A DNA stretch of 23,513 bases. It comes from a virus. Taxonomy: Duplodnaviria > Heunggongvirae > Uroviricota > Caudoviricetes. The notes under the pieces were generated by a model that made no database searches, had not been told where the DNA came from, and worked only from the letters and a program-made list of their open reading frames with translations. The stretch is taken from IMG/VR virus record IMGVR_UViG_2690315815_000002. One strand, given 5' to 3'. The position numbers and the translations under genes are program-made. The first letter of the stretch is position 1. The number at the start of each line of letters is the position of its first letter. Below, piece after piece: positions 7,587 to 22,463 of the stretch.

Positions 7587-8441
7587 TCAGCAGTTCGTCA
7601 TCAGGCCGTCACCGCCACCACCGGTGGCCTTGCTGCGGCGCTGCTGGGTCAGACTTTCGGTGTGGTCGAGACTGTTTTTCAGGCGGGTGAATGCCTGGCT
7701 GGTTTCATCCGCCCTGTCAGTCACCGCCTGCTTAAGTGCGGAAAAGGCGGTTTCCATCTCAGCGAGGCGCTGCTCAGTGGCGCTCAGTTTTTCCTGCACA
7801 TGTTCAGCAACAGCGGTCACCGCTTCATGCACGTCATTCAGACGGGCGTCATCGCTGGCCTGTTTGCGGCCAAAAATGGATTTCACCTTTTCGGTCAGGG
7901 CGGTGAACACGGTTTCAGGCAGGTCTTCAAATTCCAGCTCAACGGGCGTTGCCACTGAAATCAGGTTTTCAGGGCTTAATTTGAAGCGGTTCAGAGGGTT
8001 GTGTTTTGCCGTGCGGCAGAATTCCAGGTATTCCGTGCCGAGGCTTGCCGGGTCATCGGTGACGGCCAGCCCCACCAGATAACATTTGCCGGTGTTGGCA
8101 AAGTTCGGCTGAATTTCCATTGAGGTGTAGACCTTCTGCGCGGCCTTGTTCATCGCGATAAGGTCATCGGTCGGGGTGATTTTCGCAAACAGCGCCCATT
8201 TGCCTTTCAGCGCCGAATCATCGTCAATCTTTTCGGCCTTCAGTTCGACCACATCGCCATAACGCTTAAAAATACCGTCAGGCAGGATGCCGCGCAGATG
8301 TTCCAGGTTAATGCGGCAACCATAGACTCGCGGGTCAAAGGTTTCGGCCATTTCCTGAATATCCTGCGCACTGATGACACGCCCGTCACAGGTGTCACCC
8401 TCAACGCCGATACGAAAGAATTTTGAGACTTTTTTTGCCAT
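7587..8441 (-). CDS. O: capsid scaffolding protein O (gpO); native upstream region replaced by an IS end
   Basis: Start at MAKKVSKFFRIGVEGDT within ORF 7587..8468 gives 284 aa, the P2 gpO length; start codon lies inside the IS target duplication. Confidence 0.88.
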   Translation of the reverse strand: MAKKVSKFFRIGVEGDTCDGRVISAQDIQEMAETFDPRVYGCRINLEHLRGILPDGIFKRYGDVVELKAEKIDDDSALKGKWALFAKITPTDDLIAMNKAAQKVYTSMEIQPNFANTGKCYLVGLAVTDDPASLGTEYLEFCRTAKHNPLNRFKLSPENLISVATPVELEFEDLPETVFTALTEKVKSIFGRKQASDDARLNDVHEAVTAVAEHVQEKLSATEQRLAEMETAFSALKQAVTDRADETSQAFTRLKNSLDHTESLTQQRRSKATGGGGDGLMTNC

Positions 8442-8442
8442 T
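8438..8442. repeat. target site duplication CCATT (left copy)
   Basis: CCATT immediately outside the left IS terminus; identical copy at 11024-11028. Confidence 0.75.
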
Positions 8443-8635
8443 TGCGTATTTTCATGAAAGGAGATCACTCAATAACTTCCATCGAGATCGGGTAATAACA
8501 TTTGAACAGATCGCTGAATAACATCGATGGAGATCACTTTTGACTCATTTTGTTATTCAGTGATCTCCATCAATGTTATTGGAACTTCACAGGTGTGTTG
8601 ATCTGTATCTTTTGCCATTCCGGTAAAGGATACCT

Positions 8636-10177
8636 ATGCCAACAGTTCCAATTTCTATGAGAAAACTTAAAGAAATTCTTAGGCTTAAATACGGTGTTGG
8701 ACTCAGCCATCGACAAATTGGTCGTAGTCTTGCAATCTCCCCTTCCGTTGTATCCAGATATGCTAATCGGGCGGCTCAACTTGGCATAAAGCAGTGGCCC
8801 TTACCTACAGGATGGGATGATACAAAACTAAAACATGCGTTCCTTCAGACCCAGGTTAAGATGAAGAAGCACTCTCTGCCTGACTGGGCTACAGTACACC
8901 GGGAACTGCGTAATAAATGCGTGACGCTGCAGCTACTCTGGGAAGAATACTGTGAGCGTAATCCAGGCGGTTTTTACAGCTATAACCATTACTGCCGGAT
9001 GTACCGTGAATGGCTCAAAACCACTTCACCATCAATGCGTCAGGTACATAAAGCTGGCGAAAAACTTTTCGTTGATTACTGTGGACCTACCGTTGGCGTT
9101 ACCGACCCTGAGACCGGAGAAATAAGAACTGCTCAGGTCATCGTAGCTGTTCTCGGGGCATCAAGTTACACATGGGCAGAGGCCACCTGGTCTCAGCAGC
9201 TTGAAGACTGGGTGATGAGTCATGTTCGCTGCTTCCAGTGGTTGGGTGGCGTTCCTGAACTTGTTGTTCCGGACAATCTGAAAAGCGCCACATCCAGGGC
9301 ATGTAAGTATGATCCTGACGTTAACCCTACCTACCAGCAGATGCTTGAGCATTATAATGTCGCAGTTTTGCCTGCGCGGCCACGTAAACCGAAAGATAAA
9401 GCCAAAGCTGAAGTTGGCGTTCAGGTTGTTGAACGCTGGATCATGGCCCGAATCAGGCATGAGATCTTCTACAGCCTTGCATCGCTTAATCAGCGCATTC
9501 GGGAGTTGCTGGAAAGACTGAATAACAAAATAATGCAGAAGTTGGGTTATTCACGTGCAGAACTCTTCATCCAGCTTGATAAACCCGCACTGAAGCCTCT
9601 TCCTGAAGCCAGTTACAGTTACACCCTGGTGAAGAAAGTCAGAGTTCATGCCGATTACCACGTGGAAATCGACAAACATTACTACTCGGTTCCATGTTCG
9701 CTGTTAGGCCAGCAACTGGAAGCATGGATCTCCGGAGAACTGGTAAGACTCTTCAATCAGGGGCAGGAGGTTGCTGTGCACCCGCGCAAGCGTACTTATG
9801 GCTACAGTACCCGCAACGAGCACATGCCTGAAGCTCATCGACAGCATGCCACCTGGACGCCAGAGCGTCTTCTGGAATGGGCGGGGCACATAGGCAGTGA
9901 AACTCATAGTTATGTGCTTCATATACTGAACTCTCGTCCACATCCGGAACAAAGCTATCGCTTCTGCCTTGGACTCCTGAACCTTCATAAAAAATACAGT
10001 AAAGCCAGACTTAATGCAGCATGTGCAAGAGCTCTGAAAACAAAGGTATGGCGTCTGTCAGGTATTAAATCGATCCTGGAAAAAGGTCTGGATAAACAAC
10101 CTGTTCAGGATCCAAAACCAGATCTGTTATCCACGATGGAACACGAAAACGTACGCGGCAGTGAGTATTACCACTGA
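8636..10177 (+). CDS. istA: IS21-family transposase IstA
   Basis: 513-aa ORF with the appearance of an IS21-family IstA (N-terminal HTH-like region then catalytic core); paired with an IstB-type ATPase. Confidence 0.85.
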   Translation: MPTVPISMRKLKEILRLKYGVGLSHRQIGRSLAISPSVVSRYANRAAQLGIKQWPLPTGWDDTKLKHAFLQTQVKMKKHSLPDWATVHRELRNKCVTLQLLWEEYCERNPGGFYSYNHYCRMYREWLKTTSPSMRQVHKAGEKLFVDYCGPTVGVTDPETGEIRTAQVIVAVLGASSYTWAEATWSQQLEDWVMSHVRCFQWLGGVPELVVPDNLKSATSRACKYDPDVNPTYQQMLEHYNVAVLPARPRKPKDKAKAEVGVQVVERWIMARIRHEIFYSLASLNQRIRELLERLNNKIMQKLGYSRAELFIQLDKPALKPLPEASYSYTLVKKVRVHADYHVEIDKHYYSVPCSLLGQQLEAWISGELVRLFNQGQEVAVHPRKRTYGYSTRNEHMPEAHRQHATWTPERLLEWAGHIGSETHSYVLHILNSRPHPEQSYRFCLGLLNLHKKYSKARLNAACARALKTKVWRLSGIKSILEKGLDKQPVQDPKPDLLSTMEHENVRGSEYYH

Positions 10178-10188
10178 TACGGGATCCA

Positions 10189-10938
10189 ATGATGAATCAT
10201 CTTTACGAACAACTGACCGCACTTAAACTCACCGGCTTCCGTGATGCGCTTAAAAAGCAACTTGCTCAACCGGGCACATACCAGGAGCTGGGCTTCGAAG
10301 AACGCCTGTCATTACTGACAGCAGAAGAACTAACCTGCCGTGAAAACAGGAAGGCAGAGCGTCTGATCAAACATGCACGGTTCAGACTTAATGCTGAGTT
10401 ATCAAAGCTGGATTATCGTAACAATAGAGGGCTGGACAGGGCCCTCATCCGTTCACTCAGTCAGGGAAACTGGTTAACCCTGAAACAAAATATTTTACTG
10501 ACCGGGGCCACCGGCAGCGGTAAAACGTTCCTGGCATGTGCACTTGGTCATAATGCCTGCCGACAGGGATACAAGGTCTACTATTATCGCCTTAAAGCGC
10601 TGATGGAACAGTGCTATCAGGGGCATGCTGATGGAAGATACAGCAAACTTTTGACCAGGCTGAATAATAGCGATCTGCTGCTTCTGGATGACTGGGGGCT
10701 GGAACCTCTCTCATCAGAACAGCGTAGCGACCTGCTGGAAATAGTGGATCTGATGTACCAACGAGGCTCAATCATCGTAGTGAGCCAGTTGCCGGTGGAA
10801 AACTGGTACAAAATGATCGGAGACTCCACACATGCGGATGCCATCCTAGATCGACTGGTTCATGGCAGTATCAAGATCGAACTTAAAGGAGAATCAATGC
10901 GGAAAATACAATCTCCGTTGACCGAAGGAGATCAGTGA
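10189..10938 (+). CDS. istB: IS21-family ATP-binding helper protein IstB
   Basis: 249-aa ORF with Walker A (GATGSGKT) and Walker B (LLLLDDWG) motifs, as in IstB/DnaC-like AAA+ proteins. Confidence 0.88.
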   Translation: MMNHLYEQLTALKLTGFRDALKKQLAQPGTYQELGFEERLSLLTAEELTCRENRKAERLIKHARFRLNAELSKLDYRNNRGLDRALIRSLSQGNWLTLKQNILLTGATGSGKTFLACALGHNACRQGYKVYYYRLKALMEQCYQGHADGRYSKLLTRLNNSDLLLLDDWGLEPLSSEQRSDLLEIVDLMYQRGSIIVVSQLPVENWYKMIGDSTHADAILDRLVHGSIKIELKGESMRKIQSPLTEGDQ

Positions 10939-11028: not shown

Positions 11029-11200
11029 GTCAGGAGTCCTGAATAGTGATTAGAGGAGTCACATGTCGGCATCAGTTTCCCGACGATGCGCATCCTCCGC
11101 CATCAGTCCCGGATGGCTTATCACTGACACAACAGCACCTTAGCGAATCGCGGGGCGCGACTCAGTAGCCTTGCCGTGTATTCATCACGGCGAGGTATTC

Positions 11201-12973
11201 ATGACCATCACCACAGACACCACTCTTTTACACGACCCGCGTCGTCAGGCGGCGCTGCTGTACTGGCAGGGGTTTTCCGTGCCGCAGATTGCCGCCATGT
11301 TGCAGATGAAACGCCCGACGGTGCAGAGCTGGAAACAGCGCGACGGCTGGGACAGCGTTGCCCCCATCAGCCGTGTCGAAATGAGTCTGGAAGCGCGGCT
11401 GACCCAGCTCATTATCAAACCGCAGAAAACCGGCGGTGACTTCAAGGAAATTGACCTGCTCGGACGCCAGATTGAACGACTGGCACGGGTAAACCGCTAC
11501 AGCCAGACCGGCAACGAGGCAGACCTTAATCCGAACGTCGCTAACCGCAACAAAGGCGGGCGGCGCAAACCGAAAAAGAATTTTTTCAGTGACGAGGCTA
11601 TCGAAAAGCTGGAGCAGATTTTCTTTGAGCAGTCTTTCGACTATCAGTTGCACTGGTATCGCGCCGGGCTTGAGCACCGCATCCGCGATATCCTGAAATC
11701 CCGCCAGATTGGCGCGACATTTTATTTTTCCCGCGAGGCGCTGCTGCGCGCCCTGAAAACCGGTCATAACCAGATTTTTCTGTCGGCCAGTAAAACGCAG
11801 GCGTATGTGTTCCGTGAATACATCATCGCCTTTGCCCGTCTGGTTGACGTTGACCTGACCGGTGACCCGATTGTCCTGGGCAATAACGGCGCAAAACTGA
11901 TTTTTCTCGGCACCAACTCCAACACCGCACAGAGCCATAACGGTGACCTGTACGTCGACGAGATTTTCTGGATCCCAAATTTTCAGGTTCTGCGTAAGGT
12001 GGCATCAGGTATGGCCTCACAGAGTCACCTGCGCTCGACCTATTTCTCCACCCCGTCCACACTGGCGCACGACGCCTACCCGTTCTGGTCGGGTGAACTG
12101 TTCAACCGGGGACGCGCCAGCGCCGCCGAACGTGTGGAAATCGACGTCAGTCATAACGCCCTTGCCGGTGGGCTTCTCTGTGCGGACGGCCAGTGGCGGC
12201 AGATTGTCACCATTGAGGACGCCCTGAAAGGTGGCTGCACACTGTTCGACATTGAGCAGCTCAAACGCGAAAACAGCGCCGACGATTTTAAAAACCTGTT
12301 CATGTGTGAATTTGTTGACGACAAGGCATCGGTGTTCCCGTTCGAGGAGCTGCAACGCTGCATGGTCGACACGCTGGAAGAATGGGAAGACTATGCACCG
12401 TTTGCCGCCAATCCGTTCGGCTCCCGCCCGGTATGGATTGGTTACGACCCGTCACACCGTGGCGACAGCGCCGGATGCGTGGTGCTGGCACCGCCGGTGG
12501 TGGCCGGTGGCAAATTCAGGATACTTGAGCGTCACCAGTGGAAAGGCATGGACTTTGCCACCCAGGCTGAATCCATCCGCAAACTCACCGAAAAATATAA
12601 CGTCGAATACATCGGTATTGATGCCACCGGCCTCGGTGTCGGCGTGTTCCAGCTCGTGCGCTCGTTCTATCCCGCCGCGCGCGATATCCGCTACACACCG
12701 GAAATGAAAACCGCAATGGTGCTCAAGGCAAAAGACGTTATCCGCCGTGGCTGTCTGGAATATGACGTCAGCGCCACCGACATCACCAGCTCGTTTATGG
12801 CTATCCGCAAGACCATGACCAGCAGCGGACGCAGCGCCACCTATGAGGCCAGTCGCAGCGAGGAAGCCAGCCACGCCGACCTCGCCTGGGCGACCATGCA
12901 CGCCCTGTTAAATGAGCCACTCACCGCCGGTATCAGCACCCCGCTGACATCCACCATTCTGGAGTTTTACTGA
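11201..12973 (+). CDS. P: terminase ATPase (large) subunit P (gpP)
   Basis: Start at MTITTDTTLLHDPRRQAALLYWQGF within ORF 11171..12973; 590 aa, recognisable as P2 gpP. Confidence 0.92.
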   Translation: MTITTDTTLLHDPRRQAALLYWQGFSVPQIAAMLQMKRPTVQSWKQRDGWDSVAPISRVEMSLEARLTQLIIKPQKTGGDFKEIDLLGRQIERLARVNRYSQTGNEADLNPNVANRNKGGRRKPKKNFFSDEAIEKLEQIFFEQSFDYQLHWYRAGLEHRIRDILKSRQIGATFYFSREALLRALKTGHNQIFLSASKTQAYVFREYIIAFARLVDVDLTGDPIVLGNNGAKLIFLGTNSNTAQSHNGDLYVDEIFWIPNFQVLRKVASGMASQSHLRSTYFSTPSTLAHDAYPFWSGELFNRGRASAAERVEIDVSHNALAGGLLCADGQWRQIVTIEDALKGGCTLFDIEQLKRENSADDFKNLFMCEFVDDKASVFPFEELQRCMVDTLEEWEDYAPFAANPFGSRPVWIGYDPSHRGDSAGCVVLAPPVVAGGKFRILERHQWKGMDFATQAESIRKLTEKYNVEYIGIDATGLGVGVFQLVRSFYPAARDIRYTPEMKTAMVLKAKDVIRRGCLEYDVSATDITSSFMAIRKTMTSSGRSATYEASRSEEASHADLAWATMHALLNEPLTAGISTPLTSTILEFY

Positions 12974-14007
12974 TGAGCAAGAAAAAAGGGAAAACACCGC
13001 AACCTGCGGTGAAAACAATGACCGCCAGCGCCCCGAAAATGGAGGCATTCACCTTTGGTGAGCCGGTGCCGGTACTCGACCGCCGTGACATTCTGGATTA
13101 CGTCGAGTGCATCAGTAACGGCAGATGGTATGAGCCACCGGTCAGCTTTACCGGTCTGGCAAAAAGCCTGCGTGCTGCCGTACATCACAGCTCACCGATT
13201 TACGTCAAACGTAATATTCTGGCTTCAACGTTTATTCCGCACCCGTGGCTTTCCCAGCAGGATTTCAGCCGCTTTGTGCTGGATTTTCTGGTGTTCGGTA
13301 ATGCGTTTCTGGAAAAGCGTTACAGCACCACCGGTAAGGTTATCAGGCTGGAAACCTCACCGGCAAAATATACCCGCCGTGGCGTGGAGGAGGATGTTTA
13401 CTGGTGGGTGCCGTCCTTCAACGAGCCGACAGCCTTCGCGTCCGGCTCCGTGTTTCACCTGCTGGAGCCGGATATTAATCAGGAGCTGTACGGCCTGCCG
13501 GAATATCTCAGCGCCCTTAACTCTGCCTGGCTGAATGAGTCGGCCACGCTGTTCCGCCGCAAGTATTACGAAAATGGCGCACATGCTGGATACATCATGT
13601 ACGTCACCGATGCCGTGCAGGATCGCAACGATATCGAAATGCTTCGCGAAAACATGGTGAAGTCGAAAGGCCGCAATAACTTTAAAAATCTGTTTCTCTA
13701 TGCCCCACAGGGGAAAGCCGACGGCATTAAAATTATCCCCCTCAGTGAAGTGGCGACGAAGGACGATTTTTTTAATATCAAAAAAGCCAGCGCCGCTGAC
13801 CTGCTGGACGCGCACCGCATCCCCTTTCAGTTGATGGGTGGCAAGCCGGAGAACGTCGGGTCGCTGGGTGATATTGAGAAAGTGGCAAAGGTCTTTGTCC
13901 GCAATGAGCTTATCCCGTTACAGGACAGGATCCGCGAGATAAACGACTGGCTCGGTCAGGAGGTCATCCGCTTTAAAAACTACTCACTTGACACTGACAA
14001 CGGCTGA
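12973..14007 (+). CDS. Q: portal protein Q (gpQ)
   Basis: 344-aa ORF recognisable as P2 gpQ; ATG overlaps the P stop (TGATG). Confidence 0.92.
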   Translation: MSKKKGKTPQPAVKTMTASAPKMEAFTFGEPVPVLDRRDILDYVECISNGRWYEPPVSFTGLAKSLRAAVHHSSPIYVKRNILASTFIPHPWLSQQDFSRFVLDFLVFGNAFLEKRYSTTGKVIRLETSPAKYTRRGVEEDVYWWVPSFNEPTAFASGSVFHLLEPDINQELYGLPEYLSALNSAWLNESATLFRRKYYENGAHAGYIMYVTDAVQDRNDIEMLRENMVKSKGRNNFKNLFLYAPQGKADGIKIIPLSEVATKDDFFNIKKASAADLLDAHRIPFQLMGGKPENVGSLGDIEKVAKVFVRNELIPLQDRIREINDWLGQEVIRFKNYSLDTDNG

Positions 14008-14012
14008 ACATC

Positions 14013-14034
14013 GCCGCCTGCGGGCGGCTTTTTT
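14013..14034 (+). terminator. rho-independent terminator downstream of Q
   Basis: GCCGCC-TGCG-GGCGGC hairpin followed by TTTTTT. Confidence 0.7.
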
Positions 14035-14168
14035 ACATCCCGTCATCACGCCCTCACCACCGCACAAAACACCCCGCAGACACACCAACGCCCCAGCAGG
14101 CCGACTAAATGCCATCACGACGCGCTGAGACGCTGAAAAAATAAAATCAGCACCACCGCCAGCGCGCA

Positions 14169-14187
14169 GTGCTTTCCCCGCCTCGCC
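14169..14187 (-). other. cos site (19-nt cohesive end) of the P2-like phage
   Basis: GTGCTTTCCCCGCCTCGCC is the exact reverse complement of the P2 cohesive end GGCGAGGCGGGGAAAGCAC as I recall it; correct position just beyond Q. Confidence 0.8.
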
Positions 14188-14379
14188 CGCCCGCTTCATG
14201 GGGCGGTTTTAATGCAGTTGCATAGATACTATGGATCCGCACCAGTCCTGACCGCACGCAGCCTGAACGGACATCCCCGACGCATGCAAAAACATTCACT
14301 TGTTGCATGCAACGGCTTATTTAATGACAAATCAACTTAAATTTACAAAATCCACAGGTATGGATACTTTGCGAACATG

Positions 14380-14411
14380 ATAGGCTTACGAGAATTATCG
14401 AGCCTATTTTT
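14380..14411 (+). terminator. hairpin plus T-run immediately upstream of the RBS of the 313-aa gene
   Basis: ATAGGCT (14380-14386) pairs with AGCCTAT (14401-14407), 14-nt loop, then TTTTT; GGAG RBS at 14415-14418. Confidence 0.3.
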
Positions 14412-14425
14412 GACCGGAGCAATGT

Positions 14426-15367
14426 ATGCAAGGTAAAGTTGACGAACAGCAATCCAATGATATTGAAGCTGAGTTTGGATACTATCCAGTAGAAGTTAAC
14501 GTTGAAACTGATGATTTTTCTTTACTTACTTTACCCGGTCTAGCGGAAAAAACAAATCTTATAAACAATCACAGAAATGTTATTAACGGTTGGATATACC
14601 CAGGAAACCAAGAAGTATATAACCTCAATGGAGGCATATCCACAATGCCTTTTAGCCAACGAGTATTTGGCTTACCCAAAACACACTCACTAAAATTAAA
14701 AAATACATCTTCACTAGAAACTCTCAATTTTGCTGTGTGGTGTCTGTCTTTTTTCAAAGGGATAAGATTAACAACTACTGATGCCGGTTTTTTAGACGCA
14801 ACCCCAATAAAACCCAGCAAATTAACTGACTTTATTCTGGTCAAGTGCTCTGAAAAAGAGGTTATAGAATTAGCACTCAAATACATGTCTAGCGAGACAA
14901 AAACCAAACACGCACCAATAAATATAGCAGCAATAGTGCATGCACTATTTTTATCCCAAAACCCACAATACCTTAGCTTCGAAAAATTCCAGTATCTTTA
15001 TATGGCACTGGATAGTTGCTTTGCTTTAACATGGGCAGAAAAGAACAAGTGTACAGAAAAGACTCTAAATCACTCCAGGCGCTTGAAGTGGATCTGCAAA
15101 ACTTATGGAATACCACGACCATCATGGGTTACAGGCAAAAAAAACATTACAAACATCCGCAATGAAAACTTTCATGAAGCTATGTTTCATGGTCAACCAC
15201 TTGGCTTTACCACTATTAACAATTATCAATATGGAGATGACATATTACAACAAATGCAGGCTTTAATTTGCCGATTACTCGTTGCGATTCTTGGTGTTAA
15301 CGCCCCCGATTACATCACATCGAACGTGAACTCTCGTGAATATCATTCACTAACATTAAAAATATAA
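14426..15367 (+). CDS. hypothetical protein, 313 aa, AT-rich, with C-terminal R-x4-H motif (possible HEPN-like nuclease)
   Basis: Complete ORF with GGAG RBS 7 nt upstream; motif R245-NENF-H250 (IRNENFHEAMFHG) at nt 15158-15175; no resemblance to P2 core genes. Confidence 0.6.
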   Translation: MQGKVDEQQSNDIEAEFGYYPVEVNVETDDFSLLTLPGLAEKTNLINNHRNVINGWIYPGNQEVYNLNGGISTMPFSQRVFGLPKTHSLKLKNTSSLETLNFAVWCLSFFKGIRLTTTDAGFLDATPIKPSKLTDFILVKCSEKEVIELALKYMSSETKTKHAPINIAAIVHALFLSQNPQYLSFEKFQYLYMALDSCFALTWAEKNKCTEKTLNHSRRLKWICKTYGIPRPSWVTGKKNITNIRNENFHEAMFHGQPLGFTTINNYQYGDDILQQMQALICRLLVAILGVNAPDYITSNVNSREYHSLTLKI

Positions 15368-15382
15368 AACGACTAAAAATAC

Positions 15383-15408
15383 TCTCCAGTAACAATAAGT
15401 ACTGGAGA
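15383..15408. terminator. hairpin between the convergent 313-aa gene and the membrane-protein gene
   Basis: TCTCCAGTA / TACTGGAGA 9-bp stem with 8-nt loop; T-run follows on the minus strand. Confidence 0.4.
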
Positions 15409-15449
15409 TGTATTATCACTAAAACCAATAAAAAATCACAACTAATGCT

Positions 15450-16049
15450 TTACTTAGATAGTTTGTCTTTAATTATATTCAGAACACCAATTATTAATTC
15501 ACTGATTGGCGTGGCCAACTCAATAGTATTAGATGTCGACTTTGTTCTAAAGTCTTTATCTGTCGGGTGTTGAAATGCTGATTTAAGAAGAGTCAAAAGC
15601 AAAGTTAAACCCACACCAAGGATGAATGCAACAATAGCTATTAGAGAACTGGCCGATAACCAATCGGTGGATAAACCAGAAATAGATTTTCTAACTTTAT
15701 TAGTGTCTGAAGATGGTGTTATCCTCTCATCAGCCATCTTCGGATCCGAAGATAAAGCAGAACATTTTTCTGCTGAAACACAAGTTTGTGTATCTACTTT
15801 TTGTGTTATCGCTGCGGCAATACTGCTTTTCGCTTCCAGCAAGCCATTTCCAACAGCCAAAGCAAAGTTAAGCCCCTGCCATAGAAATGTACAAGCAAAA
15901 CAAAGCACAACGGCAGAGAGCACTAATCGCATACTTCTACGCTCTATACCATCCCGTCTATCTCGCCTTATAAGGATATCAGGATCTGAATCGCCCTTAG
16001 GAGTGGTTCCTTGCTCTGGGGACTGTCCAGATAAATCAATATCAGCCAT
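15450..16049 (-). CDS. hypothetical 2-TM membrane protein (199 aa from the first ATG; 160 aa if the internal ATG at 15932 is used)
   Basis: Two hydrophobic helices (LVLSAVVLCFACTFLWQGLNFALAV and LIAIVAFILGVGLTLLLTLL) separated by a Ser/Ala-rich linker; co-directional with and downstream of the peptidase gene. Confidence 0.5.
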   Translation of the reverse strand: MADIDLSGQSPEQGTTPKGDSDPDILIRRDRRDGIERRSMRLVLSAVVLCFACTFLWQGLNFALAVGNGLLEAKSSIAAAITQKVDTQTCVSAEKCSALSSDPKMADERITPSSDTNKVRKSISGLSTDWLSASSLIAIVAFILGVGLTLLLTLLKSAFQHPTDKDFRTKSTSNTIELATPISELIIGVLNIIKDKLSK

Positions 16050-16090
16050 AAAAAAATCACCCTTACATGTACAAACGTAAAGGTGATTTT
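16050..16090 (-). terminator. intrinsic terminator between peptidase and membrane-protein genes, directly abutting the downstream ATG
   Basis: On the minus strand: UCACCUUUAC / GUAAGGGUGA 10-bp stem (one G-U pair), 10-nt loop, then seven U, followed immediately by the ATG at 16049; the 3' arm contains the only SD-like sequence (AAGGGUG). Confidence 0.6.
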
Positions 16091-16115
16091 AAACAGGTTA
16101 AAAGTTAAAGGCTAA

Positions 16116-16601
16116 TTAATAAGCCATTCCTAAGCTCTTTAAGCGCCAATGCATAGCGGCTTCTGATACATTAAAGATGCTTGCTAATCTCAAAGTGCTA
16201 TCAATACCTTCTCTGGATACCAATTGACGTATAGCAGACTCAGGCATTAACAACTCAGCAGCAAACTTGTTTGCTTCAACCTCACGGTAATCACGAGCAC
16301 CTGTTGAATAATTCCCGACATTATCCCGATGGTACTCTCCGTCCTGGGTATGCCCCAGCACATGATGACCTAACTCGTGTGCAACAGTAAAACGTTGACG
16401 ATTAGAATGTTCACTAGAATCAAAATAAATCCTATGGACACCCTTTTTGATGACAGCCAGACCGCTTAACCCATCGTTGTTATAAGCCGATTCCTCAAGT
16501 GCTTCAACACGAGCACCCCACGCTTTAGCAAGCTTAAACGGATCGACAGGTAGTCGGCGATCCCAATAGCGGTCAAGCAGTTTTTTAGCTGCATAGCTCA
16601 T
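16116..16601 (-). CDS. ImmA/IrrE-family (M78) zinc metallopeptidase, 161 aa, with no adjacent HTH partner
   Basis: HEXXH motif HELGHHVLGH and the downstream EANKFAAELLMP signature typical of ImmA/IrrE peptidases; strong SD AGGAGG 5 nt upstream of the ATG. Confidence 0.8.
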   Translation of the reverse strand: MSYAAKKLLDRYWDRRLPVDPFKLAKAWGARVEALEESAYNNDGLSGLAVIKKGVHRIYFDSSEHSNRQRFTVAHELGHHVLGHTQDGEYHRDNVGNYSTGARDYREVEANKFAAELLMPESAIRQLVSREGIDSTLRLASIFNVSEAAMHWRLKSLGMAY

Positions 16602-16637
16602 GGTTGCCTCCTACGTTAAAAAAGTTAAGTATGCACA

Positions 16638-16666
16638 GCCATATCACAGTTGTTATTTTATGTCAA
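16638..16666 (-). promoter_or_regulatory. putative sigma70 promoter for the peptidase gene
   Basis: On the minus strand: perfect -35 TTGACA (16661-16666), 17-nt spacer, weak -10 TATGGC (16638-16643), about 35 nt upstream of the ATG. Confidence 0.35.
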
Positions 16667-17322
16667 GGCTGTTTTTCAGCCATTACTATAACACTAATCC
16701 ACGTTTTCCCATAACATTTTCGACATCATATATGCATTCCGTTCTGCATATAGAGCTTATCTTTGCTGATAACACGAGATGAATACGCGCAACCAGTCCA
16801 CGATTTATAAAAAACCTTATAAATCAGAATATTGAGTTAAAAAAACACTAACTACTTGCGCAGCGCGTTGTTAAACCTCAGCGACACTAAAAGAAAATTT
16901 CAGAGTCACCGAAGTTTCCACAGAAAACGCAACTTAATGATTTTATTGGAATTTATGTCGCTATTTTTAATTACTTGTTTAAATCCGCCATATTGAAACT
17001 GTGCATTTCTAGCCACTCACAACTTTAAAAAATTTACATTGCTTTCAAGACCTTATCATCCGTAGTCTCTGCTTTTTACTTTGAGCTATATCAAAAAAAG
17101 CTCAAACATCCTTGATGCAAAACCAGTATTACACAACATAAAATGCAACCAGAAACAACGACATACTATATGTTGTGTTGTTCAGGTCCTCTGTTCGGTG
17201 ATATGCCAGATCACTTTGCGTTTAAACAGAGCATTATTTCAGGGCAAGACTTCGCTCAATAGTCACTCCGCCTTAGAAGCGCATATATCGGCGGAAATTG
17301 CCCTCTGCTTACAGGAGGCGAT

Positions 17323-17436
17323 ATGAAGAAGTGCTATTACTGCATTCTCGTTCTGGCCCTCTTTGGCTATCCATATGGTAGTCCGAGTGGTTTGTCAGTA
17401 AACGTCAGTAATATCCATGTAAGTATTTTTCTTTAG
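17323..17436 (+). CDS. small hydrophobic peptide, 37 aa (MKKCYYCILVLALFGYPYGSPSGLSVNVSNIHVSIFL)
   Basis: SD AGGAGG at 17313-17318, ATG at 17323, stop at 17434-17436, terminator 12 nt downstream. Confidence 0.4.
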   Translation: MKKCYYCILVLALFGYPYGSPSGLSVNVSNIHVSIFL

Positions 17437-17448
17437 TATGCTTCAAAC

Positions 17449-17478
17449 AAAAAAACCACCTGCCAGGGTGGTTTTTTT
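17449..17478. terminator. bidirectional rho-independent terminator
   Basis: A-run (17449-17455), CCACC-TGCCAG-GGTGG hairpin, T-run (17472-17478). Confidence 0.65.
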
Positions 17479-17738
17479 GCGCCCGTCATCAATCCGATGA
17501 AAGACTAGCAAGACTTCGCTCGAGATGAATTATGCTTCGACATAAAGTCACTCGCAATGGTTTTATTAACCGAAATAGATGCTCTTTTATGACTCGAATC
17601 AAATAGCTGCCTTCAATTACATGCTAACGATTCAATACAATTTAGCCTTCTGATTCAACACGCTATTGCTCCTCATCTACCTTAGAGGTGCTTCGCATAA
17701 TCCATTCAAAGACATATAAAATCACGCTGTATTTTTAC

Positions 17739-20015
17739 TCAAATGGGTAACAAAAATCCCGGCCAATCATCAGCGACCTGATAAGTGAAAGGTTTCCCGT
17801 CATAATTTACGGTCGCGCCACGCGCCAGCGCCTCAAGCTCCCATCGTTGCGGCCTGATACCGTTCTGAGCGAGATCAACGCGGATACGGGTAATTTGCAA
17901 TCGTTCCGACCGGGTCAGTCTGGCCGATGGTGCAATTTCATGCGGTTTTAACGGGCTTCCGTTTCTTTGCTGACGGTTTGGCGTTCTCCGGTCGTGTTTT
18001 AATGCGCCCCTGAGCGCCCTCACGACCTCCGGGTCATTCCATTCGATAACATCGTCATCAACCAGATTAAGCACTGCTGCGGCGTGCTCAGAAGGTGTGG
18101 GAGCCGGTAACGAAGTATCACCACCGGTGAGCTTTCCACAGTTATTGACAGGACTCCGAGGCGCGGCGATGCCGCTTTTTAAAGTCAAAGGCTCAACGAC
18201 CGGAACTTTCGGCACAATGCGCCAGTCCGTCGTTCTGGTGATATGAATATGACGCGCGCCGAGATGCGGCGCGTAAATGCCGACCACCCTCTCGACCTCT
18301 TCCTCGTACTCGTTAACGTCATCCGACGGGCTACGGGCGACCCTGACAGTCTGACAATCGCGCGGGACATTTGCCCCACCCTGCGCGCTGATATACAACG
18401 CAAAATCACCACTGTCTGCGGCGGCGCGTGCAGCCTCGACGCGCTCGTCAAACTCATCAGCAATGCTGACGCCGCGCGGCAATTTGCGTAGTTCACGGTA
18501 AGCCCCCATTGTCGGCAGACCAACCGTTTTAAATTGCGGGATGCGCCACGTTGACGCCCATGCGGTAACAGCCGCAGCAGTGTCTTTCAGCGGCCTGCCG
18601 GTATCGTTATCGAGCTGACCATCCAGTGCATAGCCGTCGATGTTTTTTGAGATGTATTTCGCGATATACCCCGCAGCACCGCCCCGGTTAAGGTGTTTTG
18701 CCTGAAAACGGTTTCGCGCGGCTCCTCTTTCGTCGCCATCCTCTTTGAGCGCATAGCGACGCATGATTTCGATAATCTGGTTACGCTGGCGCGGATTACA
18801 AAAAAGCATCATATGCCAGTGCGGCGTTCCGTCGTGGTGTGGCTCGACGACACGCAAACCGTAGACCTGTAAATCATTATCCTTGAATGCCGTGCGCATC
18901 AGGCTCCAGATACGGCAGAGATAACGCTGCGCATCCTTTGGATTAAATGCCTCATCGTTCCAGCCGTGATTTAGCTGGACGGTTTTACTTTCGCCTTTTC
19001 TGACCTGACGTGTCGGGTGATACTTTGACGGCGCGGTCAGCGTGATAAACATCCCCACATCACCCTCTGCTGCGGCGTAACGCTCAATACCGGCAATGGT
19101 GTTCATCAGCTCCATCCGGCGAATTTCAGGATTAGAAATACTGCCCATCACCTTACTGATAAGGTCGATGCGCTCGCCGGTTTCCCTGTTTTCGAGATCA
19201 CACGATTTAAGAAATTCCAGATTTGCCTGGCGGCGTGCACGCACATCACGAATGGCATGTTTACTGGCATAAGGAGAACGGTCTTTATTGACCTCCCCGA
19301 CAGCAATCAGTAACGCCTCATGCCAGCGCATACGCTGGCCTTTAAGCTGATGGGTCCACCACTCATCGTTAAACAGACGGGCAATGGCAGAATATGCCTG
19401 CCTCGTGGTCATCTGCCCTTTACGGTATTTTTTCCAGTAGAGAGGGGAAATATTGAAAGCACGTGCAGCACCAGCAACATGACCATAGAGGTGAGCCTGC
19501 GCCTCATCCGTAAACAGCGATTCTTTTTCGCCATGCGCATCCACCCAGGCATCGCAGAGTTCCTCATACATCATGAAAAGCTGCGATGAGATACGGGCGG
19601 CAAACTTTTTCAGCTCCTTGTCATTCATCCCCGGCAGACGCGCATAATGGCCACGCTCTGCCAGAAACAGCAACGACGCGTCGGTGTTCATTTCATGGCG
19701 CTGATTCACACGCTCAATGCGCGGCCATAAACGACGCTGAAAAGTGGATGTGAGAAAATAAAACCCGTGCACCGGGCTTTTATTGCGCCGGATGTAGTCA
19801 TAGCGTGAAGTAAACAGCGAGCGCAAAAAGTAAGGCAGGCGGTTAATCGTGGATAAAACCCCTTGCACCTGACGCATCTCGTCACGTGTAAGGGGTCTTT
19901 CGCGCCCGACAGCCTCGCGTGGCGCGTTCCATGCATAAGCACCGGTAAACGCCTTACCGGTGCCTGCGGCAAATGCTGACGGAGGGACAAAACGCCCGGA
20001 GGCTTTAACGGCCAT
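17739..20015 (-). CDS. A: replication initiation protein A (gpA, rolling-circle nickase)
   Basis: ORF 17739..20057 recognisable as P2 gpA; ATG start chosen at MAVKASGRFVPPSAF (the longer track ORF begins at a TTG). Confidence 0.9.
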   Translation of the reverse strand: MAVKASGRFVPPSAFAAGTGKAFTGAYAWNAPREAVGRERPLTRDEMRQVQGVLSTINRLPYFLRSLFTSRYDYIRRNKSPVHGFYFLTSTFQRRLWPRIERVNQRHEMNTDASLLFLAERGHYARLPGMNDKELKKFAARISSQLFMMYEELCDAWVDAHGEKESLFTDEAQAHLYGHVAGAARAFNISPLYWKKYRKGQMTTRQAYSAIARLFNDEWWTHQLKGQRMRWHEALLIAVGEVNKDRSPYASKHAIRDVRARRQANLEFLKSCDLENRETGERIDLISKVMGSISNPEIRRMELMNTIAGIERYAAAEGDVGMFITLTAPSKYHPTRQVRKGESKTVQLNHGWNDEAFNPKDAQRYLCRIWSLMRTAFKDNDLQVYGLRVVEPHHDGTPHWHMMLFCNPRQRNQIIEIMRRYALKEDGDERGAARNRFQAKHLNRGGAAGYIAKYISKNIDGYALDGQLDNDTGRPLKDTAAAVTAWASTWRIPQFKTVGLPTMGAYRELRKLPRGVSIADEFDERVEAARAAADSGDFALYISAQGGANVPRDCQTVRVARSPSDDVNEYEEEVERVVGIYAPHLGARHIHITRTTDWRIVPKVPVVEPLTLKSGIAAPRSPVNNCGKLTGGDTSLPAPTPSEHAAAVLNLVDDDVIEWNDPEVVRALRGALKHDRRTPNRQQRNGSPLKPHEIAPSARLTRSERLQITRIRVDLAQNGIRPQRWELEALARGATVNYDGKPFTYQVADDWPGFLLPI

Positions 20016-20280
20016 ATGAGCCAAAAGCCTCTGAACAACGCTTGCTGAGTTGCTCAACCTGCACGTTTAAATCAGCAAAAGACTTTGCGCTTCCGGTCAG
20101 AATATCGTGATGCATCAGGCCGGAAACGAGCTGGCTTAATTTCGGGTAATAACCAACCACCGACAGCCATTCCTGACCGGCGTTTTTACCGCTTTCCGCT
20201 CTCTTTTTCTCGTGGAGAATAAACTGAAAGCTGTCACTGGTAACGACATAACGTTCGCCAATTTCAATACGAATACTCAT
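20005..20280 (-). CDS. hypothetical early protein (P2 orf83 position)
   Basis: 91-aa ORF in the small-ORF block between B and A; stop overlaps the A start region. Confidence 0.7.
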   Translation of the reverse strand: MSIRIEIGERYVVTSDSFQFILHEKKRAESGKNAGQEWLSVVGYYPKLSQLVSGLMHHDILTGSAKSFADLNVQVEQLSKRCSEAFGSYGR

Positions 20281-22169: not shown

Positions 22170-22463
22170 ATGAAATTAAGCGAAAAGATTAAGGCCTTGC
22201 GTGAGGCTGAAGGGCTAAGCCAATCAAAATTCTGTGAAATCATAGAGTTACCGCTAAGCACACTTAAAAAATATGAAGGAGGAAACTTTGAACCCGGTGG
22301 CACAGCTTTGCTAAAAATCACTATGCATCCCACATTCCAAAAATATGCTCTATGGCTTATGACAGATAAAACCGCGCCGGACGCAGGACAAATCGCACCG
22401 GCTCTCGCGCACATTGGGCCAGAGTCAACAGAGTCCAACCACTCCACGAAAAGGATTGGCTAA
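22170..22463 (+). CDS. C: immunity repressor C (P2 C-type)
   Basis: 97-aa ORF; C-terminal half (TFQKYALWLMTDKTAPDAGQIAPALAHIGPEST) resembles P2 C; located between cox and int. Confidence 0.85.
   Translation: MKLSEKIKALREAEGLSQSKFCEIIELPLSTLKKYEGGNFEPGGTALLKITMHPTFQKYALWLMTDKTAPDAGQIAPALAHIGPESTESNHSTKRIG

Follow-up and report, generated by a model that had tools for sequence, protein, structure and literature searches.

The stretch of DNA analysed here (the window; 23,513 nucleotides (nt), record IMGVR_UViG_2690315815_000002, Caudoviricetes) is a P2-like prophage in reverse orientation with respect to the P2 map, and it carries between portal gene Q and replication gene A two co-directional genes, encoding a stand-alone zinc metallopeptidase of the M78 family and a protein with two transmembrane (TM) segments. 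This pair probably represents a Rosmer-type toxin–antitoxin (TA)/abortive-infection module that travels as cargo of the prophage, with the 2-TM protein as the toxin and the peptidase as its neutraliser. We favour this reading, on balance, because the peptidase is homologous to the antitoxin of Gordonia phage Kita, zinc peptidases have a precedent as antitoxins, the pair is conserved, the toxin-like gene is never found alone and the catalytic residues are invariant. It is further favoured by the company that the pair keeps, namely the Q–A hotspot of P2-like phages and, 1.8 kb from the Serratia module, a canonical RmrT/RmrA pair. The two genes are:

16116-16601, minus strand: stand-alone M78 (ImmA/IrrE-type) zinc metallopeptidase of 161 amino acids (aa), catalytic domain only (PF06114)
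15450-16049, minus strand: 2-TM protein of 199 aa, phrog_8096 (function not assigned), predicted toxin/effector

An original prediction on this locus had described an M78 peptidase with an intact HEXXH site, and the profile search against Pfam agrees: the 161-aa product matches Peptidase_M78 (PF06114) with an E-value of 3.8e-21 and 75.6 bits (cutoff 22). The residues expected to bind zinc and to catalyse are located as follows:

16365-16379, minus strand: HELGH zinc-binding/catalytic motif (H75, E76, H79), from direct translation
16281-16283, minus strand: third zinc ligand E107, within EANKFAAELLMP

H75, E76, H79 and E107 are invariant across 23 members of the clade, which argues that the enzymatic activity is under selection, and the dN/dS of the gene between the window and phage P2DC1 is 0.04. 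The best match in the PDB is CapP (7t5t), over residues 75-155 of the 291-aa CapP chain, where H97, E98, H101 and E128 are the equivalent residues. The best PADLOC match (PADLOC-DB v2.0.0) is likewise the capP profile (E 1.1e-30, profile positions 8-153 of 242), and 14 RmrA profiles also match (best E 6e-17), in the peptidase segment only (e.g. positions 146-267 of 363).

The M78 catalytic fold and motifs are common to the window protein and to CapP/CapH, ImmA/ImmR and IrrE/DdrO. In contrast to CapP and IrrE, the window peptidase has neither a GAF/single-stranded DNA (ssDNA)-sensing domain nor a cysteine switch. The protein ends at residue 161, with no C-terminal GAF domain bearing an ssDNA-binding groove; there is no cysteine-switch loop, and the product contains no Cys at all. 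The switch is not present in all CapPs (CapP paper). An invariant Arg, R92 (16326-16328), stands at the position aligned with the zinc-capping cysteine-switch residue of CapP and is usually followed in the clade by Asp or Glu (HRD, FRE, PRD). As the original prediction had noted, no helix-turn-helix (HTH) protein is encoded nearby: none was found in the open reading frames (ORFs) of at least 30 aa within 1.1 kb upstream or downstream of the pair, nor was there a capH match, so that the CapH-type HTH gene and regulated immune operon of CapP/CapH have no counterpart. The single-domain M78 is the form found in ImmA/ImmR, without the adjacent co-transcribed XRE repressor that serves there as the substrate. 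In peptidase–repressor switches the partner gene encodes an HTH substrate, whereas the conserved partner here is a membrane protein. The pair is neither a CapP/CapH nor an ImmA/ImmR system, and the proposal that the protease senses a signal is hard to maintain for a protein reduced to its catalytic domain.

The TM prediction (Kyte–Doolittle) on the second gene located two TM segments at about residues 41-65 and 131-153, as had been anticipated. The AlphaFold2 model has long helices over both stretches, with low confidence (pLDDT 65, pTM 0.40), and a Foldseek search of this low-confidence model against the PDB gave no relative (best E 2.6). No PADLOC profile matched the protein at E <= 1 and none of the RmrT families did; there was also no holin match in Pfam or PHROG. 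Homologs are known from Enterobacterales, Vibrio and Aeromonas: a word-indexed search recovered 52 clusters and an exhaustive profile search over 1.84 billion sequences recovered 57 representatives. Its recognisable parts are:

16029-16037, minus strand: conserved D-L-S motif (residues 5-7) on the tip of the cytoplasmic N-terminal tail (residues 1-39), which is acidic, disordered and variable in length
15855-15929, minus strand: TM helix 1, residues 41-65, preceded by the basic juxtamembrane stretch RRDRRDGIERRSMR
15591-15659, minus strand: TM helix 2, residues 131-153, with the near-invariant core AFILGVGLTLxLTLLK, the most constrained part of the protein
15456-15524, minus strand: C-terminal amphipathic helix IELATPISELIIGVLNIIKDKLS, conserved as (T/G)P(L/I)SEL...Y(L/I)KxK(F/L)

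The ORF is a real gene; its pN/pS is 0.08 in TM2, 0.31 in the N-terminal tail and 0.87 in the periplasmic loop, so that constraint ranges from strong in TM2 to relaxed in the loop. The basic helix before TM1 has the family form ERRxMR, and the loop between TM1 and TM2 is long and of low complexity in enteric forms, with a conserved Cys pair. An N-in/C-in topology is suggested by the positive charges beside both helices and by the Cys pair of the loop; a cytoplasmic peptidase could then reach both the N-terminal tail and the C-terminal helix.

The start codon of this gene deserves attention. Met40 ('MRL...'), an internal residue, is the start in several public records and gene calls, including that of phage P2DC1; an internal Met is also the start in Rousset et al. 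(PMC9122126), whose Table S2B gives the product as '1 TM in protein 2'. P2DC1 differs from the window by a 27-nt in-frame indel in the N-terminal tail and keeps the first ATG; both show that the upstream ATG at 16049 is the translation start and that the N-terminal 39 residues are translated. The Met40 calls therefore hide from the records a conserved tail and its motif (window 15930-16049; locus L002, 806-949). At the tip of the tail the conserved form is D-[L/F/Y]-S-(G/A/Q). D[LFY]S occurs in the N-terminal 60 residues of 43 of the 73 partner proteins, compared with 3.7% of control ORFs, mostly within the first ~20 residues and in proteins ranging from E. coli to Pseudomonas, Burkholderia and Betaproteobacteria. 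The partners without it are mostly N-terminally truncated gene calls or belong to a Vibrio subgroup. We infer that the motif is a candidate docking or cleavage site for the peptidase.

Comparison across genomes extended the co-directional arrangement, already pointed out in the original prediction, to many genomes and mobile elements. At every locus of a 2-TM homolog that was examined, an M78 gene lies directly upstream; such loci include a Serratia island between phn and nrdD, an Enterobacter plasmid, a phage-like contig and, in Vibrio harveyi, a mobile element inserted beside recombinases. Conversely, genes for 2-TM proteins of 110-240 aa follow those of stand-alone M78 proteins with 40-50% identity, and a 2-TM ORF stands immediately 3′ of the M78 gene in 12 of the 14 closest relatives (unrelated genomes) among the matches listed, against a background of 4.5% of ORFs of 100-270 aa in those loci. 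The M78-alignment genome scan behind this comparison listed matches mostly from distant taxa. In a P. aeruginosa prophage the pair directly follows an S24 repressor gene, and in an Aeromonas Mu-like prophage it is flanked by mor and the endolysin gene; a Klebsiella P2/HP1-like prophage, lambdoid prophages, and Moraxella, Hydrogenophaga and other genomes also carry it. In Peduoviridae phages ACA1 (Pseudoalteromonas) and Carl1 (Burkholderia) it is next to cos, and P2-like phages of E. coli, Salmonella, Pseudoalteromonas and Burkholderia carry it with the same order and spacing. The whole cassette is present in 46 of 5,426 complete E. coli genomes. A scan of the genome collection with the 2-TM alignment gave 80 pattern matches, none confirmed by tblastn, probably owing to low-complexity/TM masking. 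More distant M78 proteins show the classical arrangement, with an overlapping upstream XRE HTH gene.

Taken together, M78 and 2-TM genes are a conserved two-gene mobile module, and a functional coupling of the peptidase to the downstream membrane protein is supported by this genomic association. The 2-TM gene was never seen without the M78 gene at the loci examined, whereas two members of the M78 clade lack the 2-TM gene (L020, L028); a toxin-like gene that is never alone and a peptidase that sometimes is reproduce the usual asymmetry between toxin and antitoxin. Salmonella Infantis CP148870 (L101 3001-3354) has an intact 2-TM gene next to an M78 gene that a 1-nt deletion in a G-run cuts short, an arrangement that at first sight speaks against an antitoxin role; a second 1-nt deletion lies in an A-run upstream, and the sequence is otherwise 99.7% identical. 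Because both deletions fall in homopolymer runs, they are probably sequencing errors and not a natural toxin without its antitoxin.

The functional assignment comes from RosmerTA, a system consisting of a zinc-peptidase antitoxin and a toxin of unassigned function, in which attempts to transform the rmrA deletion failed, perhaps owing to toxicity (Millman et al., 2022). In the NetFlax network, ImmA-type proteases form the antitoxin hub D25, where an HTH is 'often' present (Ernits et al., 2023; PMC10440598). One of its pairs, from Gordonia phage Kita, was studied in E. coli: RmrT(D5) is toxic and depolarises and permeabilises the membranes, RmrA(D25) neutralises it partly, and the pair defends narrowly, against a few (two or three) BASEL myoviruses (PMC10440598). 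The window peptidase matches Kita gp32 (YP_009301393.1), which is RmrA(D25), by tblastn over 98% of its length (E 9e-20; 50,697 phage records) and by BLASTP end to end with 38% identity (E 2e-29). The overlapping next gene, gp33 (YP_009301394.1), is RmrT(D5) and encodes an acidic N-terminal tail followed by two TM helices. Both loci consist of an HTH-less stand-alone M78 of about 160-180 aa encoded first and a small acidic-tailed 2-TM protein immediately downstream, as cargo of a prophage or temperate phage. They differ in the partner, which has 119 aa in Kita and 199 aa in the window, where a long periplasmic loop with a Cys pair, the D-L-S motif and the C-terminal amphipathic helix are added, and in the gene junction, since the Kita genes overlap and the window genes are split by a terminator hairpin. 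Furthermore, toxicity, neutralisation and defence were demonstrated experimentally for Kita, whereas they are predicted for the window pair.

Compared with canonical RosmerTA, where RmrA has 360-400 aa with an HTH, the M78 domain and a C-terminal region (Millman et al., 2022), the window peptidase lacks the HTH and the C-terminal region and is encoded first. Features in common are the zinc-peptidase antitoxin (by PF06114, the PADLOC RmrA profiles and the Kita homology), the operon of two genes, in which a small toxin gene, of a family that varies, stands beside that of the peptidase, and the location in defence islands and prophages. The N-terminal HTH does not seem obligatory for RmrA, because Kita RmrA is also without it. 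The partner matches none of the known RmrT families, and the accessions of the window proteins were not found among the NetFlax table rows listed. In an island of Serratia nevei located between phnG-J and nrdDG, a canonical RosmerTA pair (L004/L005 8463-10246; RmrT E 8.5e-59, HTH–M78 RmrA E 2.7e-145) lies 1.8 kb downstream of an M78 and 2-TM module, so that both Rosmer-like types coexist in one small defence island.

Rosmer peptidases behave as antitoxins, which is at odds with the role of sensor or activator that the original prediction gave to the protease. The same prediction considered the prophage's own repressor as a substrate. An M78 that cleaves the XRE-type repressor C, as ImmA cleaves ImmR, would act as an anti-repressor and leave the 2-TM protein as an unrelated or accessory lysis/exclusion protein. 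The repressor is encoded at:

22170-22463, plus strand: immunity repressor C, 97 aa, with an XRE-type HTH N-terminus and a P2 C-like C-terminal half

HTH repressors are the classical substrates of M78 peptidases and C is one by its N-terminus; the homolog gp1 of phage ACA1 is annotated 'antirepressor', and the P. aeruginosa pair directly follows a repressor gene. Nevertheless, the conserved partner is the 2-TM protein and not a repressor, and C is encoded 5.6 kb from the M78 gene, in a separate operon. The module is equally conserved on a plasmid, on chromosomal islands and in Mu-like and lambdoid prophages, elements with unrelated repressor types or none, it sits in a lysogenic-cargo hotspot behind a terminator, and the Kita pair behaves as a TA system in E. 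coli, where the phage repressor is absent (PMC10440598). Phage 186 gave no match at E <= 1e-15 in the tblastn search of the phage collection, which argues that the window M78 is not a close homolog of Tum. Cleavage of C is conceivable because C is an XRE-type HTH protein, but the context points elsewhere and the anti-repressor is very improbable.

Expression signals around the pair suggest that the two proteins are produced at different levels. The genes are separated by 66 nt, and the following elements were found:

16638-16666, minus strand: promoter-like TTGACA, N17 spacer and extended -10 TGaTATGGC, upstream of the M78 gene, with a presumed promoter function
16607-16612, minus strand: Shine–Dalgarno (SD) sequence AGGAGG of the M78 gene, 5 nt before the ATG and identical in P2DC1
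16050-16090, minus strand: intergenic hairpin (RNAfold) with a 16-bp stem and -18 kcal/mol, followed by T7, directly abutting the 2-TM ATG

The strong SD that had been claimed for the peptidase gene is present. Its own promoter is plausible: the element reads TTGACG...TGaTAAGGC in P2DC1, and its weak -10 kept it off the list of the consensus scan. The 3′ arm of the hairpin, AAGGGTGA, is the sole SD-like element of the 2-TM gene, and the structure may be read as an intrinsic terminator that also occludes translation of that gene, which would hold the membrane protein well below the peptidase in amount. When hairpins were compared by per-sequence folding, with stems counted from the base, the same layout of an A-run, a GC-rich hairpin, T5-7 and the ATG appeared in the Serratia, Enterobacter plasmid, Vibrio, Klebsiella and Aeromonas loci, with stem sequences that vary by lineage (TCACC.../GCCCTCA/GCCACC), and a compensatory T.G to A-T change distinguishes the window from P2DC1. 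An overlap of the two genes (ATGA) takes the place of the hairpin gap in Pseudomonas, Betaproteobacteria, Burkholderia phage Carl1 and Gordonia phage Kita. With either design, hairpin or overlap, the toxin would not exceed the peptidase in amount.

On these grounds the proposed Rosmer-type module would work as follows. The minimal M78 would be the cytoplasmic neutraliser, produced first and in excess, because its gene has the strong SD and the toxin gene lies behind a terminator hairpin that sequesters its SD. The 2-TM toxin would insert with both ends in the cytoplasm, and the free protein may oligomerise through the invariant TM2 and depolarise or permeabilise the inner membrane. Most likely the peptidase would proteolyse the N-terminal tail of the toxin at or next to D-[L/F/Y]-S. 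If a phage blocked host expression, or inhibited or titrated the peptidase, intact toxin would accumulate and cause death or growth arrest before phage release. We infer in this scheme the toxicity of the 2-TM protein, its neutralisation by cleavage, the trigger and the defence outcome. A more specific version, which we consider doubtful, is that the antitoxin peptidase continuously destroys the toxin instead of binding it, by cutting at D-[L/F/Y]-S, with the hairpin setting a safe, low basal level of toxin. Leu, Phe and Tyr are recognised by the bacterial ClpS/ClpAP N-degron pathway; a cut just before them would therefore expose a degron and lead to degradation of the toxin, whereas a cut after them would fit a hydrophobic P1 residue, as in CapP, whose site is between F82 and R83. 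A phage that stopped the supply or the activity of the peptidase would let the intact pore-former build up. If true, this would be the first mechanistic model for RosmerTA neutralisation.

The tail and its motif could also be read with the opposite polarity, closest to the view of the original prediction: the N-terminal tail would hold the 2-TM protein inactive and, upon a phage cue, M78 would cut the D-L-S region and release a pore, as happens with bacterial gasdermins. The position of the motif on a disordered tail of variable length and the invariant catalytic residues suit such an activation, and the tight under-expression of the membrane protein would also suit a dangerous zymogen. However, a peptidase with no GAF domain, ssDNA groove or cysteine switch has no sensor with which to perceive the cue, and, with a constitutive protease made together with its substrate, activation would never cease. 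In addition, the Kita peptidase lowers toxicity (PMC10440598) and the non-transformable rmrA deletion of Rosmer, possibly a sign of toxicity, points the same way (Millman et al., 2022). A protease-activated pore is for these reasons unlikely.

Some features of the membrane protein and its surroundings recall instead systems that do not kill the cell by design, such as superinfection exclusion by a block of DNA entry, or holin/antiholin-like lysis timing, in which the peptidase would mature or turn over the 2-TM protein without suicide. An N-in/C-in 2-TM protein with a charged C-terminal tail resembles class II holins, the Aeromonas Mu-like pair lies between mor and the endolysin gene, the P. 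aeruginosa pair occupies a rexAB-like position after the repressor, and the conserved periplasmic Cys pair could contact envelope components. Class II holins have about 65-95 aa and two TM segments and are encoded in the lysis cassette by the endolysin, whereas the window protein has 199 aa and is encoded in a cargo hotspot; the module precedes an endolysin gene only in the Aeromonas prophage. P2-like phages have their own lysis cassette, with the pair placed in a variable cargo site, and plasmids and islands carry the pair too. Lambda RexA/RexB are also lysogen-expressed cargo, in which a cytoplasmic component is joined by an inner-membrane effector that can collapse the membrane potential. 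The likeness is functional only, and includes the P. aeruginosa pair that follows the repressor gene as rexAB does; the two systems are unrelated in sequence and in domains, with a RexA that is no peptidase and a RexB with four TM helices. The Kita toxin alone depolarises the membrane (PMC10440598), and no defence was seen with the E. coli ortholog described below against eight phages, including 186cIts (PMC9122126). Exclusion or lysis timing has, in our view, only a slim chance of being the function of the pair.

The arrangement is already listed in the P2-hotspot tables of Rousset et al. (2022) and has been tested once, with a negative outcome. The ortholog of E. coli TA280 was cloned as 'Peptidase + TM' in pFR104, from the end of A to the end of Q (Rousset et al., 2022; PMC9122126, Table S2B), on a low-copy vector with its native upstream region and in host MG1655. 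The TA280 locus shares with the window the Q–A hotspot, the two genes (M78 88% identical) and the upstream non-coding region, and the TA280/P2DC1 allele differs in having no convergent 313-aa gene. pFR104 figures only under 'additional tested systems' and is not among the defenders against the eight phages, which included the P2-like 186cIts; those that defended from the P2 hotspot were old-tin, DUF4238, a three-gene system and DprA+PRTase (PMC9122126).

This result weighs against a Rosmer-type module, and so do several other points. The 2-TM family shows no detectable relation to Kita RmrT(D5) by hhalign (probability 0.1) and, because of this lack of similarity, the toxin role is argued from architecture and context. 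Kita RmrA neutralised its toxin in part only, and AlphaFold could not model the Kita RmrA/RmrT complex (PMC10440598). The reverse reading, an activation of the membrane protein through removal of an inhibitory tail by the peptidase, takes a small share of the probability. The abortive-infection reading of the original prediction fits Kita RmrA/RmrT, the closest relative that has been tested. Since no more than two or three BASEL phages were affected by the Kita system, the defence spectrum of the window type may likewise be narrow, and the TA280 negative may reflect such a spectrum and not a lack of function.

The surroundings of the pair are those of a cargo site. The Q–A interval is a known cargo hotspot of P2-like phages, occupied in P2 itself by old and tin (PMC9122126). 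In the window this cos-proximal interval (14008-17738) has 3.7 kb and a GC content of 0.40, compared with 0.50 for the whole window, and it contains three genes, the M78 and 2-TM genes (-) and a 313-aa ORF (+); ~1.1 kb with no sizeable ORF separates the M78 gene from gene A. Capsid genes precede terminase P, and the relevant neighbours are:

11171-12973, plus strand: terminase P
12973-14007, plus strand: portal Q
14426-15367, plus strand: 313-aa ORF, phrog_5937 (function not assigned), convergent to the M78/2-TM unit
15383-15408, no strand assigned: bidirectional terminator-like hairpin closing the M78/2-TM unit and the convergent 313-aa gene
17449-17478, minus strand: strong intrinsic terminator A7-CCACC...GGTGG-T7, ~260 nt 3′ of gene A
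17739-20057, minus strand: replication gene A, with its stop at 17739

The terminator at 17449-17478 insulates the cargo from the early operon. A scan of 14000-17800 against Rfam gave only sub-threshold chance matches. The 313-aa ORF, without Pfam or PADLOC matches, was considered as a third component of the system and rejected: P2-EC67 and Yersinia P2-like phages have the ORF but not the pair, TA280/P2DC1 the pair but not the ORF, which is therefore independent cargo. In strain CUWW10 an insertion sequence (IS) lies upstream of the 313-aa gene, outside the pair, and is uninformative on the pair.

A 37-aa hydrophobic ORF (MKKCYYCILVLALFG..., 17323-17436, +), with a perfect AGGAGG SD 4 nt upstream, is convergent to gene A, ends at the terminator of 17449-17478, which is bidirectional, and is 97% conserved in P2DC1. 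The ~700 bp around it (16975-17668) are found with ~87% identity in about 100 E. coli P2-like prophages, with no annotated feature under the match among the E. coli records listed. LY180, the one prophage with this stretch that was inspected, has a different cargo, an AAA ATPase pair. The ORF could encode a small membrane peptide or be a type I toxin-like gene. Elsewhere in the window, between capsid-scaffold gene O (7587-8468, -) and gene P, two extra genes occupy 8636-10938 (+) and encode a 513-aa IstA-type transposase (rve, Mu-transposase C-terminal domain) and a 249-aa IstB ATPase (PF01695, E 2e-67). They represent an IS21-family insertion in the divergent O/P late-promoter region and, because the element interrupts this region, the prophage may be defective in late gene expression.

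Our literature search brought up no paper devoted to this module, nor any on the Rosmer mechanism. The locus itself had been catalogued; the predicted toxin family is new, and the present analysis adds the connection with Kita RosmerTA, the extent of the clade, the motif in the N-terminal tail, the terminator/SD hairpin and the corrected start codon. For annotation, PADLOC-DB v2.0.0 gives no full-length RmrA and no RmrT match for this pair. The analysis connects a 'Peptidase + TM' candidate that was negative in 2022, a TA/defence pair validated from an actinophage and a wider clade of prophages, plasmids and islands. RosmerTA is widespread, and the minimal version with only a catalytic domain, together with a short conserved motif in its partner and a clearly defined brake on expression, may be the simplest place to study how the toxin is neutralised and how the system is triggered.

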